64,000 bases of DNA from Clostridia bacterium (GTDB lineage: Bacteria > Bacillota > Clostridia > Christensenellales > UBA1242), in contig JAGAOQ010000021.1 in NCBI GenBank assembly GCA_017623705.1, positions 9,485 through 73,484 on the forward strand, given 5' to 3'. A model generated the notes under the pieces. That model saw nothing but the letters and a program-made list of their open reading frames with translations. It made no database searches and had not been told where the DNA came from. Shown here in pieces: positions 6,611 to 48,494 of this stretch (position 1 is the stretch's first letter; the number at the start of each line of letters is the position of its first letter). Position numbers and translations under genes: made by a program.

Positions 6611-7522
6611 CTATATCTTGTGGTTTTTCAAATAATTAACTACTCTTTCCAGTTCTTCGGCAGCATAATAAGCGATTACCACCTTACCACGTTCCAAAGT
6701 ACCGTCGATTTTAACCTTTGTCCCGATTGCACGAGATAAGATTTTTTCTTGTTCACGAATTTCTGGTGCTTTTGCTGGTTTAGTTTTATTTGACGTAAAG
6801 GTTGGCATTTTGCCGTCAATCAATTCACCCAAAGCACGGACGGACAAATTTTCATCAACAGCACGGCGAGCATAATCAATTTGTTTTTGTTGGTTATCAA
6901 CCGATAGCAAACGAATCGCATGGCCTGCGGTTAATTTTTGATGACTAATCATTTGTTGGATTTCATCAGGCAAGCTCAACAAACGCAACGAGTTAGCAAT
7001 CGTACTACGTGGCTTTGACAAACGTTCGGCAACTTTTTCCTGCGTCAATTTATGTTCGTCCATCAACTTTTTAATACCCAAGGCCAATTCAATATCATTC
7101 AAATCAGCACGTTGCAAGTTTTCAATAATTGCAATCTCTGCCACTTGTTTAGGATTAAACTTTTTAATCACGGCAGGAATTTCTACCAGCCCCGCCATAC
7201 GTGCGGCACGCCAACGACGTTCACCCGCCACAATCATAAAACGGTTACCAACAGGCGTTACCAAAATTGGTTGTACCACACCATAGGTTTTGATACTTTC
7301 TGCCAACTCACGCAAAGCTTCTTGATTAAAGACTTTACGTGGTTGGTTAATATTATTATCAATCATTGCAACAGCGATTTGTTGTACGCCGTCATTTTCT
7401 GTTTCTACTGTTTCGTTTGTTTCGTTTTCTGTATGATGTTCATTGATTGGTGTTAATTCATCATCTAAGACAATATTTCCAAACAATGCACCCAAACCCT
7501 TACCTAATTTTTTTTCTGCCAT
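6611..7522 (-). CDS. parB: chromosome partitioning protein ParB/Spo0J
   Basis: 303 aa. ParB box GERRWRAA, helix-turn-helix region LTQEKVAERLSKPRSTIANSLRLL. Confidence 0.9.
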   Translation of the reverse strand: MAEKKLGKGLGALFGNIVLDDELTPINEHHTENETNETVETENDGVQQIAVAMIDNNINQPRKVFNQEALRELAESIKTYGVVQPILVTPVGNRFMIVAGERRWRAARMAGLVEIPAVIKKFNPKQVAEIAIIENLQRADLNDIELALGIKKLMDEHKLTQEKVAERLSKPRSTIANSLRLLSLPDEIQQMISHQKLTAGHAIRLLSVDNQQKQIDYARRAVDENLSVRALGELIDGKMPTFTSNKTKPAKAPEIREQEKILSRAIGTKVKIDGTLERGKVVIAYYAAEELERVVNYLKNHKI

Positions 7523-16899: not shown

Positions 16900-16976
16900 G
16901 CACCGCTAGCTCAGCTGGATAGAGCGTCTGTCTACGGAACAGAAGGTCGAGCGTTCGAATCGCCCGCGGTGCACCA
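16900..16976 (+). tRNA. tRNA-Arg (anticodon ACG), CCA encoded
   Basis: Hand-folded: acceptor GCACCGC/GCGGTGC, D-arm GCTC-AGCTGGATA-GAGC, anticodon loop CTACGGA, T-loop TTCGAAT (one A:C mismatch in the T stem). Confidence 0.9.
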
Positions 16977-17071
16977 CAAGTAAATAATACGAACGGAAAA
17001 TTTGCGATAACTGGCAAATTTTATGCCAGGGATTTTTGGGGCGTGAAAATTGAATTAAATATTTAAGACAG

Positions 17072-17100
17072 AAAACTCAAGTTGAAATTTGAGTTTTTTT
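17072..17100 (+). terminator. rho-independent terminator after tRNA-Arg
   Basis: aaaactcaa-gttgaaat-ttgagtttt followed by a T-run. Confidence 0.6.
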
Positions 17101-17206
17101 GTTAATTAAAGTTAATGTTGCTTTTTGTATTTATCATTTATGAATATTCCATTTACACACTTTAATATTTTGATATATACTATTTAAGTATTTTTGACGA
17201 TTTCAT

Positions 17207-18595
17207 ATGATAAACTTTGATAAAGAATCCCAGTTATATGAAAAGTCGTTAGACGTGAATTATAAAAAGTCTAATGGTGTTTTTTACACTGATTTAAATT
17301 TGGCTCAATTAATAATGAATGAAATTGAGTTTAAACATCCCGATGTAAGAGTAATAGATCCTTGTTGTGGTACTGGTGTTTTTGTAAAAATAGCCGTTGA
17401 TAAAGGATTAAATAATGTTTATGGAATTGATTTGGATAAAACTGCTATTAGTCTTGCAAAAAAGATGTGTCCATCAGCTAATTTAAAATCAATGGATAGT
17501 ATCTCGAATGATTTTAACGAGATTATGAAAAAATTTAAAATCAAAGAAAAATTTGACTATGTTATTGGGAATCCGCCATATGTTCCTTTAACATCTGCAT
17601 CATTAAAAACACAAGAATATTTATTTTTAAGACAAGTTAAAAATTATGGGGATAATCTTTACATTGCTGCACTGTTACGAGCCAAGGAGATGTTAAATGA
17701 CGACGGAATTATTTCTTACATTATACCTAAAAATTTTTTGCACGTTGATTCTTATAGTTTTCTAAGAAGGGAGTTATTGCGCGATTTTTCAATCATTTCT
17801 ATTGTTGACATCGGGATGTATTTCAAAAAAGTTAGAGGCGAACAGATTGTTTTAACATTGCAAAAGAAGAAAAATGCCAATAATGTTATTAAGTTAAAAA
17901 AACTAATCAATAATAAATTTGAGTTTTTAACTGAAATAAGACAAGATTTTTACACAGACAAAATTATTATATTTGAAAATAAAGAAGATGTTGAAATTTA
18001 TAGAAAATTTAACAAATCATACACAACATTAAACGATTATGTTAATGGTTACGTTGGCAGGGGACATTCGCAATCTTCAAATGCAATTTGCGGTAAAGAT
18101 ATTAGAAAATTTGGACTCAAATCTCTACCACAACAAGAAGATGGTAGCCAAATATTTATACAAAATATTTATAGTGCGGAAGCTGGTATAATAGCTTGTT
18201 TCGGTGGAAAACTTGAAGCAAATGAAACCGTTACCATTTTTACTGATGGTGATTCAACAATGTGCAGGTATGTATTAGGCATTATCCATTCGAAATTGAT
18301 AAATTTCTATTTACTTAAATATTGTTATAATAATTCATCTGTAACAATGCACGTTGATGCTAAATATTTACGTAGTATTCCTTTTATTGTTGATAATGAA
18401 AATTTTAACATTGTTCTAGAATACGTCGATAAACTAGAAAGTTTGGACTATATGTCAAATGAGTGGTTTGAATATTGTAACCTGTTGAATAGAATAGTTT
18501 ATAGAATTTATAATTTATCAGAAAAAGAAATTAATTTTATTGATGCATTTATTAAAAAAACTCAATCAAAAAAGTGGGACAGAAATGGCAAATAG
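17207..18595 (+). CDS. N6-adenine DNA methyltransferase (gamma-class, Eco57I/TaqI-like)
   Basis: 462 aa. GVFYTD (motif X), IDPCCGTGVF (motif I), IGNPPYVP (motif IV), long C-terminal target-recognition region. Confidence 0.8.
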   Translation: MINFDKESQLYEKSLDVNYKKSNGVFYTDLNLAQLIMNEIEFKHPDVRVIDPCCGTGVFVKIAVDKGLNNVYGIDLDKTAISLAKKMCPSANLKSMDSISNDFNEIMKKFKIKEKFDYVIGNPPYVPLTSASLKTQEYLFLRQVKNYGDNLYIAALLRAKEMLNDDGIISYIIPKNFLHVDSYSFLRRELLRDFSIISIVDIGMYFKKVRGEQIVLTLQKKKNANNVIKLKKLINNKFEFLTEIRQDFYTDKIIIFENKEDVEIYRKFNKSYTTLNDYVNGYVGRGHSQSSNAICGKDIRKFGLKSLPQQEDGSQIFIQNIYSAEAGIIACFGGKLEANETVTIFTDGDSTMCRYVLGIIHSKLINFYLLKYCYNNSSVTMHVDAKYLRSIPFIVDNENFNIVLEYVDKLESLDYMSNEWFEYCNLLNRIVYRIYNLSEKEINFIDAFIKKTQSKKWDRNGK

Positions 18596-19349
18596 AGCAA
18601 ATGATTTAACGGGAAAAGAATGGTTGCAAAATTCTTTTAGTATTTGGCGAGACCTAAAAAAAACACAAGAAGAGAAGAATCTTGGGCATCCTGCGTCTTA
18701 TCCAATAAGTTTGTGTGAAAAATTAATTAAAACATTTGCAAGAAATAATTGTAATGTCCTAGACCCTTTTAATGGAGTTGGAACAACAATGGTTGCAGCC
18801 GAAAATTTAGGATGCAACGGAACTGGAATTGATTTATCAGAAGAATATTGTAATATTGCAAGAAAAAGAATTACATCAGATAAAATAAAGATTTATCAAG
18901 GTGATAGTTTTAAGTTAGTAAATTCTCTAGAGAAAAATAGCTTTGATTTAGTTGTAACTTCACCACCTTATTGGGATATTCTTAATCAAAAAAGGACAGT
19001 TGACCAAAAAAATAATATCAATTATTCAGATAAAAATAATGATTTAGGCAATATCGATGATTATTGGAAATTTATAGAATCGCTTAAAAACTTATTTGCA
19101 AATATTTATCCTTTATTAAAACATAAATCATATTGTTTAATAAATGTTATGGATTTGAGAAAAGGCAGTAACTTTTATTCTTTCCATAGCGACCTCGCCT
19201 ATGCATTAAAAGATGTTGGCTATATATTTGATGATTTAATTATTTGGGATAGACAAGCTGATTACAATAATATGAAGACTCTAGGTTATCCATATAAATT
19301 TAGGATTAACAAAGTTCACGAATATATTTTGATTATGTATAAGGAGTAA
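18585..19349 (+). CDS. N4/N6 DNA methyltransferase with motif I upstream of SPPY (apparently permuted beta-class)
   Basis: Start moved to ATG 18585 (MANRANDLTGKEW). HPASYP...VLDPFNGVGTT (motif I) is followed by VTSPPYWD (motif IV), then a IIWDR...HEYILIMYK block. Confidence 0.75.
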   Translation: MANRANDLTGKEWLQNSFSIWRDLKKTQEEKNLGHPASYPISLCEKLIKTFARNNCNVLDPFNGVGTTMVAAENLGCNGTGIDLSEEYCNIARKRITSDKIKIYQGDSFKLVNSLEKNSFDLVVTSPPYWDILNQKRTVDQKNNINYSDKNNDLGNIDDYWKFIESLKNLFANIYPLLKHKSYCLINVMDLRKGSNFYSFHSDLAYALKDVGYIFDDLIIWDRQADYNNMKTLGYPYKFRINKVHEYILIMYKE

Positions 19350-19353
19350 AAAA

Positions 19354-20241
19354 ATGAACATACAAATGGCATATTTATTAGGAATGATAATTGGTAACGG
19401 AGAAATACAAAGAAACAATTCTGCTACTAAAATTTTAATAAACATTCCACATAAGAACGAAAGAACAGATGATGGGAATGATGTAAAAATTTATGTAAAA
19501 GCAAGTATCACTGATATAAAATCAGCTTTAGAGCCAACCATTGGTACAATATTAAACTGTACTCAAAACAAATCGGTATCAACGATTTATTTTGAAAAAC
19601 CAAATTCTGATTATTTAATAACTGAAATTATGAGAATGTGTCAAAACGAAAGAACATTTGAAACAATGCACGTTCCACAGTATTTTTATACTGCATCACG
19701 AGATGAGATACTTTATTTTTTACGAGGCTTTTGTGATGTAACTGCTTATATACGAAAAAGTAATTGTTATATTGATGGAATAACACAGAGAGTGTATATT
19801 GAAATTATGCACAACTGGTATGTTGCTGCAGAAATATGTAATTTACTTAAAATAGTAGATATACCTGTTCAAACCATAGATTGGGCACATCCAAATATGA
19901 GAGATGGTAAATTAGCAAAATATAATCAAGGCAATCATAATTTTTGGAAAAAAGAACATCAAATTAAAATTACAGCAAATGAATTTTTGCCAATAGGTTT
20001 TACTGTTATTCACAAAAACAATGCACTTGAAAAATTTGCGAATGAAATGATTAACTATTATTCTAGGTTAGGCAAAAATATATCTGAAAAAACCCACAAA
20101 TTTTATTGGCAAAAAAAGAAGAAGCGTAGTTTACGTCCAAGCCATCCTGGAGAAAGTGATGTGTCAATTCCATCAGAAATTAGAGGGAAACATTATGATT
20201 GTTGGCAAGATATTGCAAATGATTTAGGTTATAGGGAGTAA
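19354..20241 (+). CDS. hypothetical protein with two degenerate LAGLIDADG-like motifs (possible DNA-binding or specificity component)
   Basis: 295 aa. AAGGAG RBS. AYLLGMIIGNGEI near the N-terminus and ILYFLRGFCDVTAYI about 110 aa later resemble LAGLIDADG helices, but the usual acidic catalytic positions are N and T. By-eye assignment only. Confidence 0.35.
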   Translation: MNIQMAYLLGMIIGNGEIQRNNSATKILINIPHKNERTDDGNDVKIYVKASITDIKSALEPTIGTILNCTQNKSVSTIYFEKPNSDYLITEIMRMCQNERTFETMHVPQYFYTASRDEILYFLRGFCDVTAYIRKSNCYIDGITQRVYIEIMHNWYVAAEICNLLKIVDIPVQTIDWAHPNMRDGKLAKYNQGNHNFWKKEHQIKITANEFLPIGFTVIHKNNALEKFANEMINYYSRLGKNISEKTHKFYWQKKKKRSLRPSHPGESDVSIPSEIRGKHYDCWQDIANDLGYRE

Positions 20242-20243
20242 TT

Positions 20244-20717
20244 GTGAGGGAATTTGATTTATATGAACCAATGGTTAATTGGTTAAAACAATACTTAGAG
20301 GGGAAATATAAAAATTGTGAAATCTTTGTAGAAGATACTCATTCTCAAAGGTTAGACCGAGCTTTACATAAATATGGAATAATAAATGATTTAGCAACTG
20401 GTGTCGATATTCAAATAGATGTCCTCGGTATTGTTAGAAAAAATGAATCATATAAATTATTCTTTATTGAAGCGAAGATTACAAAACTTACGCTGAGAGA
20501 TTTAGGTCAATTATGGGCATACTGCAAGTTGATTGACCCAGAAGAAGCATTTTTATTAACATCTGAAAGTTTTGGTTCTTTGAATAAAATTTTAAGAACT
20601 TTTGGGCGAGAAGATTTATTAGATTTTGGCAATGGAAAAAAAATAAAAAAGATGAAAGTTGGAATTTGGAATGTTGCTAGAAATAATATCGATTATATGA
20701 CACTAATACCACAGTAA
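20244..20717 (+). CDS. small PD-(D/E)xK-type nuclease (candidate restriction endonuclease)
   Basis: 157 aa. GTG start with AGGGAG RBS. VDIQIDVLGIV...LFFIEAK gives a D...ExK arrangement with a downstream QLWAY helix, as in restriction-endonuclease-fold proteins. Confidence 0.5.
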   Translation: MREFDLYEPMVNWLKQYLEGKYKNCEIFVEDTHSQRLDRALHKYGIINDLATGVDIQIDVLGIVRKNESYKLFFIEAKITKLTLRDLGQLWAYCKLIDPEEAFLLTSESFGSLNKILRTFGREDLLDFGNGKKIKKMKVGIWNVARNNIDYMTLIPQ

Positions 20718-20758
20718 AATTAAAAAATTCATATTTGGCAGTTAAACGTGTGCTTGTC

Positions 20759-20780
20759 TATATATACAAGTGGCGTCGCT
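20759..20780 (+). repeat. left copy of flanking direct repeat (inside a 14-bp inverted repeat, 20748-20761 / 20791-20804)
   Basis: Read directly from the sequence: gtgtgcttgtctat...atagacaagcacac encloses the repeat. Confidence 0.7.
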
Positions 20781-21237
20781 TCGCTCCGCCATAGACAAGC
20801 ACACTAAGCAAGCCAAAACGATGGCGAAAATTGGGTCGGTGCGCAGGCTTTTCACCGGACCCAATTTTTCTTTCCGCCGTCGTTGTTTTTTTCGGCACTG
20901 ATTTTTATCTGTGCCGTTTTAAATTTTTTGCATAGTCTTTTCGCTGTCAATGTTCTTTTTCATTGACAGTTTATATGCTAAAAATTTTGGGTCTTGCTTT
21001 TTCTAATACGGTGTGCTAGTCTATTCGCTGGTACGAAAAAAGACCACGCAAAATGACAATTAAATAGTATTAGTAAATTTTGTTAAGTGAACGGACCGCA
21101 ACTCGAAAAATTAACGAAGAATCAAATTCGGCCCGATTAAAAAAATAAAAAGTAAAAAATTGCATTTATGGGCGTTAAAGAAAATAGTGGCCAAATTTTC
21201 TTTGCGTCTTTTTTTGTCCTTAAAAGGAGTTAAAAAA

Positions 21238-21366
21238 ATGCAAAAACCAACAATCGTAATTAAGAATGATTTAGATTTATCTCTAATTAACAATGAGTTC
21301 ATTGTGGCAATGCTGAATTTAATTCTTAAGGATAAGGAGCAGGAAAATGGACTACATCAAAACTAA
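21238..21366 (+). CDS. small hypothetical protein (42 aa)
   Basis: AAAGGAG RBS 8 nt upstream of ATG 21238 (MQKPTIVIKNDLDLSL...). No family recognised. Confidence 0.35.
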   Translation: MQKPTIVIKNDLDLSLINNEFIVAMLNLILKDKEQENGLHQN

Positions 21367-21417
21367 AATCTATTTTGACGGTAGCCATTACATTGGCATT
21401 CCCAAAACAGCTCAGTA

Positions 21418-22224
21418 TTGGAAGAAAAAAAACACAAATCTAAACCACAAACAAATGAAACAGAAACAAAAGTTAAAGCAATGTTAAGTGAGAAAACAAA
21501 CGAAACTAAACAAGAGAAAACAAAACGAGTAATTAAAGAATTAGACAATGAAATAAAAAATTTTGCACACAGTAAATCAATTGTCGATAAAGTTATCAGT
21601 AAATATAAACGCAATCGTATTGTCAGATTAACTAGATTAAGTCGTAAAGTTGGATTACAACAATGGACACATTTTTGCACATTTACATATGATTCTAATA
21701 AATTAACAGAAACTGAATTTAGAGAAAAATTTTTAAATTGTATAAGACATTTATCCAATCGTAAAGGTTGGAAATACATTGGTGTCTTTGAACGCAGTCC
21801 AGAATTACAAAGACTTCATTTTCACGGCATCTTTGTCATTCCAGAAATGGTCGGCGAAATCATAGAAACCAAAGATTATTCTACCAAAACCCACCAAATG
21901 CAAATTGCTCATCAAAACACTTTCTTTTTAACACGCTTTGGTCGTAACGATTTCAAACCTATAGAAGATAATGCTACGGCACAGAAAGCCGTTAGATACA
22001 TCTTGAAATATATTCGTAAGACCGGTGAGAAAGTGATTTATTCTAAACACTTACAAACCTATTTTGTAACCGATGTTATGGAAGATGATGTAATTTGCAC
22101 AATCGGACAAGAGAACCGCAAGATTCTTCTCTTCGATGATTTTAAGTGTTGGGATTTGGTAAACGGAAAACTGTTTGGCATGGTGAGTAAAAAGTTGATA
22201 GATAACTTGCCAAAAGCTTTCTAA
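21418..22224 (+). CDS. rolling-circle replication initiator (HUH endonuclease, two-tyrosine type); true start probably 21347 via a frame change at the A8 tract
   Basis: FCTFTYD (motif 1), RLHFHGIF (HUH), AVRYILKYIRK (YxxKY as in the phiX174 gpA family). The track ORF starts at a TTG. An RBS-led ATG at 21347 lies in another frame. Confidence 0.7.
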   Translation: MEEKKHKSKPQTNETETKVKAMLSEKTNETKQEKTKRVIKELDNEIKNFAHSKSIVDKVISKYKRNRIVRLTRLSRKVGLQQWTHFCTFTYDSNKLTETEFREKFLNCIRHLSNRKGWKYIGVFERSPELQRLHFHGIFVIPEMVGEIIETKDYSTKTHQMQIAHQNTFFLTRFGRNDFKPIEDNATAQKAVRYILKYIRKTGEKVIYSKHLQTYFVTDVMEDDVICTIGQENRKILLFDDFKCWDLVNGKLFGMVSKKLIDNLPKAF

Positions 22225-22393
22225 GTGTCTTGTTCCGCCAGAGTGTAAACGGAATTGTTGCTCGGTCAAGGGTAAAGTGAATCGCTAGCGACCCTTGACC
22301 GTTAAGTAAAATCTTTAACTAAAAAATTACTAACAATTCCGTTTAACTCGTGGCTGTCGCAAGACAAAACAAAAAACATAAAGGAGGTAAAAA

Positions 22394-23902
22394 ATGAAAA
22401 CAGCAGTTGTGTATGCCCGATACAGCAGTGATAGTCAATCTGAGCAGTCGATTGAAGGTCAATTGCGAGTTTGTCAAGAGTACGCCAAGAATAATCAAAT
22501 TCTGATTGTTGACACTTATATCGACAGGGCAATGACGGGAACAAATGATTTAAGACCAGACTTTCAACGAATGATTCGAGATAGTAGCAAACGACAATGG
22601 AATTATGTGATTGTCTACAAACTTGACCGTTTTTCCAGAAATAAATATGAAACAACAATTCATAAACACACATTGCACAATAACGGAGTCAAAGTTTTGT
22701 CTGCTATGGAAAACATACCTGATACACCAGAAGGCATTATTTTAGAATCCTTGCTTGAAGGAATGAATCAATACTATTCCGCAGAGTTATCACAAAAAGT
22801 TCACCGTGGCTTAAACGAAAGCTACTTAAAAGGTCAATTCACTGGCGGAGCAACTTTGTATGGCTACGATATTGTGAACAAAAAAATTGTTATCAATCCG
22901 ACCGAAAGTGAAATAGTAAAAGAAATCTTTGCTAAATATGCACTTGGTTATACTGGTGTTTCAATTGCCAATGACTTAAAAAGTCGTGGCGTAAGGACAA
23001 AAGAAGGAAAGTATCTTAATGTCGCAAGAATTTACAAATTGATTAAAAATCCTAAATTTATCGGACAAACTATTCACAATGGTAAAGTTTATACTAACAT
23101 CTATCCAGCCATTATTGATGAACAAACTTGGCAAAAAGTTCAAGATGTTCGCAATACCAATAAACACTCTCATGGCAGGAAGAAAGAAGTTTATAATTTC
23201 ATCTTATCTGGTAAGTTAGTTTGCGGTCATTGTCATCATTTAATTGTTGGCGAAAGTGGGACTTCGGAAACCACGGGCAAACATTATTACTATAATTGTT
23301 TAAGTCGCAGAAGAAAGAAAGCCGTGTGTAATTTCCACGCTGTCAAAAAACAATGGCTAGAAGATTTAGTTATTCAAACAACTTGGCAGTTATTAAAAGA
23401 TAAAAACCAATTAGATGAAATTGCCAATATGATTTACCACAAACATCAAAATCTTAAAGATAAATTATCTAATGTTAAAGCATTAGAAATACGAAAGAGT
23501 AGTGCCGAAAAAGCAGTGAAGAATTTAATTACAGCACTGGAACAAGGTATTATTACCGAACAAACCAAAACCCGCTTACAAGAATTAGAAAAAGAAATTA
23601 TGCAATACAATTTTGAAATTGAACAAGAAAAACAACGAACCTACACCTACTTAACTTTGGATATGATAAAAAATTATTTATACAATGTTATACCTAATGA
23701 CAGTGTGCATACTATATCTGCACGCAAACACATTGTGAAATTATTTATTCGCGAAATTATTTTTGATAATCAAACATTAACAATTACTTACAATTTTACG
23801 GATAACAATCCCAGCAAACAACCGCTCGACGAAATCAACGAAGTCATCACTATCTCTAATAGTTCAAACAATCAAGAACCCCTTGCACCAATTCTAACGT
23901 AA
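22394..23902 (+). CDS. large serine recombinase
   Basis: 502 aa. AVVYARYSSDSQ catalytic-Ser motif, KLDRFSRN, recombinase domain, Cys4 zinc ribbon (CGHCHH...YYYNC), coiled-coil C-terminus. AAAGGAGG RBS. Confidence 0.9.
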   Translation: MKTAVVYARYSSDSQSEQSIEGQLRVCQEYAKNNQILIVDTYIDRAMTGTNDLRPDFQRMIRDSSKRQWNYVIVYKLDRFSRNKYETTIHKHTLHNNGVKVLSAMENIPDTPEGIILESLLEGMNQYYSAELSQKVHRGLNESYLKGQFTGGATLYGYDIVNKKIVINPTESEIVKEIFAKYALGYTGVSIANDLKSRGVRTKEGKYLNVARIYKLIKNPKFIGQTIHNGKVYTNIYPAIIDEQTWQKVQDVRNTNKHSHGRKKEVYNFILSGKLVCGHCHHLIVGESGTSETTGKHYYYNCLSRRRKKAVCNFHAVKKQWLEDLVIQTTWQLLKDKNQLDEIANMIYHKHQNLKDKLSNVKALEIRKSSAEKAVKNLITALEQGIITEQTKTRLQELEKEIMQYNFEIEQEKQRTYTYLTLDMIKNYLYNVIPNDSVHTISARKHIVKLFIREIIFDNQTLTITYNFTDNNPSKQPLDEINEVITISNSSNNQEPLAPILT

Positions 23903-23989
23903 TTCTAACTCACAGACGAAACCTAATAATTCCAATGCCATAATTTGGAAATCTTTGACCTTTTTGGATTTTAATTATATATTTTATCT

Positions 23990-25009
23990 ATGAAGCATAA
24001 AATTTTGAAAACTTTTATCTTAACATTTATTTTATTATTACCAATGGTAATCCTTGTAGGATGCGGAACAACAAATGAGTCAAATCAAGACAATGAATTG
24101 AAACAAGATAATGTATTTTATTTTGATGACGCTAATATCAACATTAACAACATTAATTTCAGTTTTTCTTGTTCAGAAACCAAAATTCAAAATACTGAAC
24201 TAAGAGTTACAATTACTGCAACTAATACTTTACTTAAAGACCAAATTCTTAATTTAGATAGTATAAAAGTAGTAAATGAAAAAACAAAAGTTGAATACAA
24301 ATATTCTGGTGCTACTTTTTATGGCGACATCACTTTGCAATATAATATAAAAACAAATTTATATTTTAATGCTTATATTCCAAGTTCTTATTTAACTGAA
24401 AACTATTACATTCAGTTTAATAACGGTGGCAATACTTATCGTATTAATTTATACGAAACACCAGATGAATTGAGAGAATCTCATACCGTTTCGTTCCAAC
24501 TTTTTTCTTACCCAAATTACAGCAATGTAAAGAATATTTCAGTTAAAGATAATAGGAAATTTGAAAAATATATTTATGAGAGTGGTGACCATCTATACTA
24601 TTGTGATACTTGGTATACTGATGAAGCAAGAACTAATGAATTTAATTGGAATTCCAAAATTACACAAGATGTTACTTTGTATGGATTTAAGTTTCCCAAT
24701 GTGCAATATTCAAGCAGTAGTGGAGAAACATTTGTATCAAAAATTAAATATGTTCCACAGGACGGAATTCTTGTTATTGATAGCTTTTCATCGAAAGTAT
24801 ATTTATCAAATTATGCCTTATATGATAATAATGATGTGAAAGAAATATATTTACCTAAAGAATTAAAAAAAATATACAATGGGAACTTTAATAAAATGAA
24901 TAATTTAGTTAAAATTCACTTTGCTGGAAGTGAAACCGAATGGAATGCCATAGAAAGCACTAGCACAATCCCATCAAATGTAACTATTATTTTTAATTCA
25001 AAGTATTAA
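23990..25009 (+). CDS. lipoprotein, function unknown
   Basis: Signal peptide with lipobox LVGC-G. N/Y/K-rich. The C-terminal IYLPKELKKIYNGNF...IHFAGSETEWNAI resembles BspA-type leucine-rich-repeat ends. Confidence 0.6.
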   Translation: MKHKILKTFILTFILLLPMVILVGCGTTNESNQDNELKQDNVFYFDDANININNINFSFSCSETKIQNTELRVTITATNTLLKDQILNLDSIKVVNEKTKVEYKYSGATFYGDITLQYNIKTNLYFNAYIPSSYLTENYYIQFNNGGNTYRINLYETPDELRESHTVSFQLFSYPNYSNVKNISVKDNRKFEKYIYESGDHLYYCDTWYTDEARTNEFNWNSKITQDVTLYGFKFPNVQYSSSSGETFVSKIKYVPQDGILVIDSFSSKVYLSNYALYDNNDVKEIYLPKELKKIYNGNFNKMNNLVKIHFAGSETEWNAIESTSTIPSNVTIIFNSKY

Positions 25010-25061
25010 ATTATCAATAATTTGAGTGTATAATATTAAACACAAACATTTGCTTGGAATT

Positions 25062-25090
25062 CTAGCGTGCCTTTATATATATAACAAGTG
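25062..25090 (+). repeat. partial extra copy of the flanking repeat (CTAGCGTGCCTTTATATATATAACAAGTG)
   Basis: It matches 25185-25211 except for a TA expansion, then diverges after ACAAGTG. Confidence 0.65.
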
Positions 25091-25184
25091 AATGAAAATT
25101 TGCGGTCAAAAATAGACTAAAAAAAATGGCTAATTTTAACAAAAAAAAGACGGTAATTTTACACAAAAATAGCAATTTGAGATC

Positions 25185-25219
25185 CTAGCGTGCCTTTATA
25201 TATAACAAGTGGCGTCGCT
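25185..25219 (+). repeat. right copy of flanking direct repeat
   Basis: CTAGCGTGCCTTTATATATAACAAGTGGCGTCGCT. Its 3' 23 nt match 20759-20780 apart from one extra A. Confidence 0.7.
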
Positions 25220-25240
25220 ACGTAGTACAAATATAAACTA

Positions 25241-48428: not shown

Positions 48429-48494
48429 CGTCCTTTTTCACGCCTATATATATAAGAAGTTGTCGCAAATACGTTGCTTTTTGCCTGTATGATA

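Follow-up and report, generated by a model that had tools for sequence, protein, structure and literature searches.

Small integrated elements that pair an integrase with a relaxase related to rolling-circle Rep proteins are known from streptococci, where integrative and mobilizable elements (IMEs) of the IME_oriT type (Libante et al. 2020) enter the stem-loop holding the nick site of another element's origin of transfer (oriT) and are bounded by direct repeats (PMC7563843). Other streptococcal IMEs are small integrated elements that combine a Rep-like HUH protein with a tyrosine or serine integrase, and many of them carry the membrane ATPase TcpA beside the relaxase gene (Coluzzi et al. 2017, PMC5357655). 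The staphylococcal (SCCmec) and Enterococcus (ECC) cassette chromosomes, in turn, are mobilised by large serine recombinases of the CcrAB type and bring highly variable cargo that builds composite islands, and a rolling-circle replication (RCR) rep gene is present in 6 of 32 ECC elements (PMC6222049). Here we analyse a 64,000-nt stretch of DNA, hereafter the window, from an uncultured gut Clostridia bacterium (assembly GCA_017623705.1, contig JAGAOQ010000021.1, positions 9,485 to 73,484; metagenome scaffold XIEF21-1_SAMN15830135). We suggest that its positions 20781-25219 are probably a small integrative element, which carries a rolling-circle HUH Rep, a large serine recombinase, one lipoprotein cargo gene and two structured non-coding elements. 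Because of the direct repeat at its ends, the same element can equally be written as 20759-25196. What would be new here is that the attachment (att) sequence corresponds to one half of an origin hairpin associated with Rep, and that a solo half-site recurring at the ends of accessory islands serves as the target.

Functionally, IME_oriT is the system closest to the window element. The two differ in their Rep proteins, as the IME_oriT relaxase is of the Rep_trans family (PF02486, MobT-related), whereas the window Rep belongs to PF23343 and, by this family assignment, shows no close kinship to the relaxase of IME_SagLMG15084_oriT. They also differ in the recombination module (accompanied by an excisionase in IME_oriT, a large serine recombinase in the window), in their hosts (streptococci and staphylococci as opposed to uncultured gut Clostridia), and in the target, which for IME_oriT is the complete oriT of an identified integrative and conjugative element rather than a solo half-hairpin. 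In comparison with SCC and ECC, the window recombinase is no Ccr orthologue (123 bits against CcrB, with a cutoff of 900), only one recombinase gene is present, insertion is not into the 3' end of rlmH, the element has a tenth of the size, and its att site overlaps the Rep-associated hairpin. The Rep domains of the streptococcal IMEs (PF01719, PHA00330, PF02407 or PF02486) are set apart from PF23343 by domain label only; unlike the TcpA-bearing members, the window element has no coupling-protein gene, although TcpA finds a parallel in a 705-aa Walker-A protein encoded beside Rep in relatives of the element. The window element belongs to none of these three groups, because its Rep is PF23343 and not Rep_trans, its recombinase falls far under the Ccr cutoffs, and its target is not rlmH. 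Of the features that define an IME, it has an integrase of its own, direct-repeat bounds and an empty site in relatives. It is probably a minimal integrative element, either mobilizable or replicative, and on sequence grounds its Rep may act either as a relaxase or as a replicase. A conjugative helper was not identified, no search for one having been made in the window.

Within the Clostridia, Tn4451 and Tn4453 are ~6-kb elements that are excised as circles by the large serine recombinase TnpX; they have a mobilisation function (a Mob/RSA system) and 2-bp GA junctions. The window element differs from them in its 14-22-nt repeat and in its HUH Rep with a hairpin, and TnpX is only distantly related to the window recombinase (E = 2.5e-4 over the catalytic domain).

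The ends of the segment are marked by the sequence TATATATA(A)CAAGTGGCGTCGCT, which can be read directly on the plus strand at 20759-20780 and again at 25197-25219. The left copy, TATATATACAAGTGGCGTCGCT, holds an exact 14-nt core at 20767-20780, and the right copy, TATATATAACAAGTGGCGTCGCT, differs from it by one extra A, 22 of 23 positions being alike. Nowhere else in the window is the 14-mer CAAGTGGCGTCGCT found in exact form. With up to two mismatches there are 3 matches against 0.23 expected, a number reached in none of 100 shuffles, and the 21-mer has no third match in the window even at three mismatches. The similarity continues upstream of the repeat, the local alignment of 20750-20783 with 25190-25222 scoring 41 compared to best scores of 20-27 in 20 shuffled windows. 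A third, truncated copy, CTAGCGTGCCTTTATATATATAACAAGTG (25062-25090, within a plus-strand feature at 25050-25090), lies 123 bp before the right copy and loses its similarity just past ACAAGTG; the right-hand copies are part of a tandem duplication of ~51 nt (25031-25081 and 25154-25204, 76% identity, 123-nt spacing). The left copy is surrounded by a perfect inverted repeat (14/14), GTGTGCTTGTCTAT at 20748-20761 and ATAGACAAGCACAC at 20791-20804. A preliminary description of this DNA had already reported the ~22-nt direct repeats 4.4 kb apart, their upstream extension, the truncated copy and the inverted repeat, and our reading agrees with it on all of these. It had also taken the truncated copy for a remnant att site; we do not regard this copy as left over from one old event, since arrays of truncated half-sites recur in relatives. 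Its candidate secondary target in the jag-gyrB spacer (48439-48473; aligned 48442-48474) is marginal at best and in our view unsupported: it scores 29 against a shuffled maximum of 27, mostly by virtue of a TA tract, and the profile of family half-sites does not pick it up at E<=10.

The segment between the repeats is an insertion. The preliminary description had proposed a comparison with a relative lacking the segment, and such a relative is available in L089, a contig from another sample, in which the locus is bordered by tRNA-Arg and, at its other end, by a CDP-glucose 4,6-dehydratase gene with 90% identity to that of the window. There the left flank of the window (20733-20783, 96% identical) is joined straight to the right flank from 25190 onward. 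The repeat is present only once, and genes for Rep, the recombinase and the lipoprotein are all missing; from 25220 on, the window and the element-free contig have the chromosomal flank in common. Further to that, independent k-mer assemblies from two sequencing runs break at both repeats. The 4459-bp contig L001 corresponds to window positions 20759-25217 at 99.98% identity, the left-flank contig L006, recovered in 3 samples, ends at 20761, and the right-flank contig L004 starts at 25190. The suggestion that the repeats are attL and attR of a small integrative element is therefore upheld in that they are the junctions of a 4.4-kb insertion, whose boundaries fall within the 22-nt repeat. It needs revision in another respect, as the repeat is not an anonymous att core but the 5' half of a conserved bulged hairpin.

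This hairpin was first traced in 80 genome loci encoding relatives of the recombinase. Its outer stem has the consensus GGCGTGTGCTTGTC paired with GACAAGCACACGCC, and the arm is followed by an unpaired 5' bulge, (T)ATACAAG, ending in ACAAG, and by a variable inner stem-loop. When 40 distinct examples are aligned, 13 of the 22 predicted pairs show compensatory two-sided changes, and these include pairs of the inner stem and the outermost pairs, both unconstrained by the search pattern. The left junction (attL, 20735-20807, plus strand) is a complete family hairpin, as seen from folding and from the 40 aligned relatives. It consists of the context TTGGCAG (20735-20741), the left arm (20748-20761), the unpaired 5' bulge ATATACAAGT (20762-20771), an inner stem-loop (20772-20790) and the right arm (20791-20804), and folds as single-stranded DNA (ssDNA) at -18.1 kcal/mol (z = -5.3), none of 200 shuffles being as stable. 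At the right junction (attR, 25174-25219, plus strand) the element-side context TTTGAGATCC and a degenerate arm, GCGTGCCTTTAT, lead into the right repeat, and the similarity to the hairpin ends at the apex; the right copy is the 5' half of the hairpin with a degenerate arm. Two other roles considered for these sequences were rejected: that of a terminator of the upstream gene for the left inverted repeat, because the structure is conserved beside Rep genes in unrelated contexts, and that of a sigma-70 or sigma-54 promoter for the half-site, because the TTG...TATA spacing fits the window copy only and not the family consensus, and a promoter scan made no calls there.

The gene with which the hairpin mainly travels is that of Rep, a point on which the view of the repeats as att sites of an element has to be modified. 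In an unbiased sample of metagenome contigs, scanned for the two arms alone (119 oriented, of which 80 were usable with at least 1.3 kb to the right of the hairpin), a Rep homolog lies no more than 3 kb from the hairpin at 57 of the 80 usable loci, convergent with it in 47 and arranged as in the window in 10, compared to a recombinase nearby at 15. At the same time, at least 12 recombinase loci keep hairpins or half-sites without Rep within 8 kb, and therefore the recombinase lineage keeps these sites too. The site is thus linked to both proteins, more tightly to Rep, and because of this we infer that the hairpin is a Rep origin, of replication or transfer, and that the recombinase lineage adopted the hairpin or its 5' half as an attachment site. 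Rep is adjoined at 39 of the usable hairpin loci by a conserved 705-aa protein, the commoner gene order being 705-aa gene, Rep, hairpin, with the 705-aa gene directly upstream of Rep (L132, 604-2721; homologs in ~40 loci). This protein, the gene for which is absent from the window element, has no match in Pfam, PHROGs, NCBIfam or PDB; it contains a number of membrane segments near its N-terminus as well as a Walker A motif, GSMGKKKT, and might be an ATPase for coupling or translocation. Some recombinase-only loci have a half-site with TGGCAC context on the opposite strand just past the recombinase stop codon (L021 2490-2523, L026 3717-3747, L028 2404-2434, L062 9717-9742), a different element architecture with the same kind of site.

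Since L089 has the left arm of the attL hairpin (20748-20761) but not the element, this arm belongs to the target side of the junction. Judging from these sequences, the element entered a solo half-hairpin that was already present where a variable island ends, and not naive chromosome. The inverted repeat noticed around the left copy is real, and its left arm comes from the target, itself a half-hairpin. A 45-nt half-site with the left context TTGGCAGTTAAAC is found after four unrelated upstream sequences: the methyltransferase island of the window, a leucine-rich-repeat (LRR) surface-protein gene in L008 (whose recombinase is 97% identical to that of the window), the upstream sequence of L181, and a 341-aa open reading frame (ORF) in the element-free L089. 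In L181 the target half-site is preceded by another half-site, and then by helix-turn-helix (HTH) and M78-peptidase genes. A 95%-identical copy of the left part of the element (L181, 1494-2455) stands there behind these HTH_3 repressor-like and M78 (ImmA/IrrE-like) peptidase genes. Pairs of an HTH_3 repressor and an M78 peptidase regulate some integrative elements and prophages, and the two genes may belong to an extended form of the element. A second att copy was sought in the other Rep-recombinase loci and found in the window and in L083 only, the other loci probably being too short. The second half-site of L083 (14224-14260, minus strand) lies 7.7 kb from its Rep-recombinase element, is inverted, has the same left context and also loses its similarity at the hairpin apex. 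It could be either a target that no element occupies or an end of an invertible segment.

Truncated half-sites also form tandem arrays in relatives. L084 has five of them (2723-2920), L010 two (1067-1146) and L045 three (6668-7353), and there are further arrays at L065 2827-3284, L181 ~1450-1490 and, in hairpin-oriented reverse-complement coordinates, L126 ~1774-1797. The array unit consists of a context starting with TTG or ATG, an arm and a bulge ending in ACAAGT, and is repeated at ~44-nt spacing, usually between the full hairpin and the recombinase gene. Most units end at one position, right past ACAAGT, where an A-rich stretch follows.

The genes of the element are all encoded on the plus strand. 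Rep (268 aa, 21418-22224) has PF23343 (REP_ORF2-G2P) as its sole Pfam match (E = 3.6e-11, 43.7 bits against a cutoff of 27.8); its translation carries all three HUH motifs (FCTFTY, HFHGIF and YILKYIRK), and a PDB search with it returned chance matches only. The large serine recombinase (502 aa, 22394-23902) is intact, with Resolvase (PF00239, E = 4e-27), Recombinase (PF07508, E = 2e-16) and Zn_ribbon_recom (PF13408, E = 6e-11) domains. It matches the PHROG 95 integrase at E = 2e-108 and is distant from CcrB and XisF, well under the cutoffs of both. The module of a Rep gene followed by a recombinase gene recurs in at least 14 genome loci. Between the two lies a long imperfect hairpin of 145 nt (22226-22370, plus strand; -36.8 kcal/mol, z = -9.15), which could act as a single-strand origin or as an ssDNA promoter, or form a leader. 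Many relatives, some of them without Rep, have a comparable structure upstream of the recombinase gene, in which the base stem ends ...GTCGAAAGACAAAA directly ahead of the ribosome-binding site. The apical loop in the window contains TAGCGA, a sequence that resembles the ssoA CS-6 motif and is not conserved. Neither this hairpin nor that of the left junction matched Rfam, at gathering or permissive thresholds. The cargo gene (23990-25009) encodes a predicted lipoprotein of 339 aa, with a signal peptide and the lipobox LVGC read from the sequence. It has no family match in Pfam, PHROGs or further family searches and no homology to the 341-aa ORF of L089, and the gene is absent from the closest relative, L008.

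We infer the enzyme behind the junctions, the position of the crossover and that of the Rep nick as follows. The hairpin would be the origin of Rep, where a nick starts replication or transfer, and a circular form of the element would have carried it as its attachment site. The serine recombinase would then have joined the hairpin of the circle to the solo half-hairpin at the end of a restriction-modification island. This would leave at the left junction a perfect hairpin, made of the target arm and the right half contributed by the element, and at the right junction a half-hairpin, made of the degenerate arm of the element and the chromosomal flank. Rep, the hairpin and the long hairpin ahead of the recombinase gene may serve single-strand replication or mobilisation of the excised circle. 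The extra A of the right copy is absent in L089, from which it would follow most simply that crossover took place rightward of the TA tract, within the 14-nt core. The predicted circle junction is ...TTTGAGATCCTAGCGTGCCTTTATATATA(A)CAAGTGGCGTCGCT|TCGCTCCGCCATAGACAAGCACAC... and the predicted empty site of the same strain ...TTTGGCAGTTAAACGTGTGCTTGTCTATATATA(A)CAAGTGGCGTCGCT|ACGTAGTACAAATATAAAC... Integration of a hairpin-bearing circle into a solo half-hairpin by the recombinase is the most economical reading of the locus, and we consider it reasonably likely. The preliminary description had held that long identical flanks are unusual for products of serine recombinases and had for that reason allowed for a Rep/HUH-driven mechanism instead; however, cassettes of the CcrAB type have att repeats of ~50 nt (PMC6222049), so that repeat length alone is no argument for a Rep-driven mechanism.

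Several observations weigh against recombinase-mediated integration as we describe it. No circular junction or same-strain empty site was recovered, and none of 18 whole small metagenome contigs with the hairpin had terminal overlaps when checked for circularity. L089 is a relative diverged by 10% that has a different upstream island too, and its contrast with the window could thus reflect island replacement and not simple insertion. When attB and attP were built from the window under two crossover models, with variants of TA-tract length and with loop inversion, none of the constructs reproduced all four breakpoints (20761, 20759/20763, 25217 and 25190), and so all that we conclude from the contig breaks is that those samples contain the repeats in more than one context. 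The predicted circle junction of the window copy folds at only -6.0 kcal/mol compared to the -18.1 kcal/mol of attL; on this model the window copy may be crippled, with an origin that is damaged once excised. Textbook attP (~50 bp) and attB (~40 bp) sites are pseudo-palindromes around a central crossover dinucleotide (PMC3783163), and the present site fits this symmetry poorly: a weak dyad (GCG..CTTG / CAAG..CGC) centres on the TA tract, and the strong dyad, the hairpin, centres on the apex and is asymmetric by ~10 nt. A crossover at the apex leaves attB unlike attP throughout its right half, and one at the TA tract makes the pseudo-palindrome plausible but requires one extra indel to match L089. 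Finally, the hairpin tracks Rep more than it does the recombinase.

This last point speaks for another reading, in which Rep itself moves the element. Rep would nick in or beside the bulge of the full hairpin at the left end, replicate rightward, stop at the partial origin on the right and release a unit-length single-stranded circle, insertion being the reverse strand transfer into a chromosomal pseudo-origin and the recombinase an accessory, for instance in multimer resolution. A full origin at one end and truncated copies at the other do recall the ori/ter layout of elements of the IS91/ISCR/Helitron type, in which Rep acts alone; the long perfect stem with its conserved unpaired bulge is the kind of site that single-strand nucleases use; and many relatives' half-sites end at a fixed point past ACAAGT, as a nick-site scar would. 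The YILKY motif of Rep holds two tyrosines, as in the phiX174 A protein and IS91-type enzymes, and the family bulge consensus includes CTTGATA, the nick core of the pC194 and phiX174 origins. However, CTTGATA is missing from the window bulge, the repeat in the window and in L083 runs 9-10 nt past the ACAAGT boundary to the apex, and half-sites and hairpins persist beside recombinase genes that lack a Rep within 8 kb. The module also conserves an intact integrase of 502 aa, an enzyme that the IS91/ISCR/Helitron type does without and whose own type has integration and excision of elements as its normal role. We regard mobility driven by Rep as unlikely.

An account without any discrete site-specific event, to which we assign a lower probability still, would treat the half-site as a generic island motif and let homologous or illegitimate recombination among its copies swap the whole island next to tRNA-Arg. 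It would explain why the entire stretch 17053-25219 differs between the window and L089, beyond the 4.4-kb segment, and it sits well with the recurrence of one 45-nt half-site after four unrelated contexts and with the tandem arrays. It does not account for the 4.4-kb unit appearing as a contig of its own bounded at the repeats in independent runs, for its encoding its own integrase, or for the recurrence of the Rep-recombinase module in many genomes behind the same kind of hairpin, and 14-22 nt of identity are short for homologous recombination. The poor folding of the predicted circle junction and the name of PF23343, taken from replication proteins of ssDNA phages, would both suit a remnant of a small ssDNA prophage or of an integrated rolling-circle plasmid that is no longer mobile. 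This we find very improbable, as none of the element's ORFs matches a capsid or morphogenesis gene in Pfam or PHROGs, by which it departs from prophages of micro-, ino- or plectroviruses, the 4.6-kb segment has no match in phage and plasmid collections, and all three ORFs are intact and 99.98% identical between samples.

The element occupies a low-G+C stretch (17001-25000, 0.27-0.37 compared to ~0.40 outside) that begins just past tRNA-Arg (16900-16976). Its first part is a variable island (17053-20732, plus strand; G+C 0.27-0.33 against ~0.40 in the flanks), which ends in the half-site that served as target, and the CDP-glucose 4,6-dehydratase gene lies on the other side of the insertion site. 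According to Pfam, the island genes (17207-20717) comprise two DNA methyltransferases, one of the Eco57I/N6_Mtase type and one of the N6_N4 type, and two ORFs without assignment. Homologs of these two ORFs are found in L081 upstream of a different Rep-recombinase element. L089 has the unrelated 341-aa ORF in place of the whole methyltransferase island; the left island boundary ...GGGGCGTGAAAAT (~17052) is common to it and the window, and at their other end both versions have one and the same half-site. At the island end next to tRNA-Arg, GGGGCGTGAAAAT (17040-17052) was considered as a hairpin remnant and rejected, the likeness being too short. Within the element, a small ORF of 42 aa upstream of Rep (21238-21366, plus strand), present as a gene call on the source scaffold and 91% identical in L008, has no family match in Pfam, PHROG and further family searches. 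An arm-like motif, GTGTGCTAGTCTAT (21011-21024, plus strand; 13/14 match to the left arm, alignment score 23), sits 210 nt into the element, in the non-coding leader ahead of this ORF.

Defence genes are often upstream neighbours of family hairpins or lie next to them. Examples are a CAP12/Pycsar-type TIR effector (L098 2372-3199), a methyltransferase with an AAA_21 ATPase (L056 2602-5158), a C5 cytosine methylase (L074 4604-5764) and a Schlafen-like helicase with a NERD domain (L043 5322-7166). Tandem accretion at att sites has precedent (PMC12084326). We tentatively raise the possibility that in a widespread family of gut Clostridia elements one hairpin has two jobs, as the rolling-circle origin of an HUH Rep and as the attachment site of a large serine recombinase. 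Such elements might enter solo half-origins at the ends of defence and surface-protein islands, each integration restoring the complete origin at one of the junctions and leaving a further half-origin at the second, so that islands would grow by accretion, with the half-site arrays recording their history in a somewhat integron-like manner.

If our reading of the locus holds, the window provides a three-gene example of a serine integrase combined with a rolling-circle nick site in uncultured gut Firmicutes, and makes one ask if one site is shared by a serine recombinase and an HUH nuclease or contested between them. In the family there are also numerous natural attP/attB pairs of a clade of large serine recombinases that has been little explored, enzymes that are sought as genome-engineering tools. 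With half-origins as targets, the stepwise build-up of restriction-modification, defence and surface-protein islands close to tRNA genes would find an explanation.

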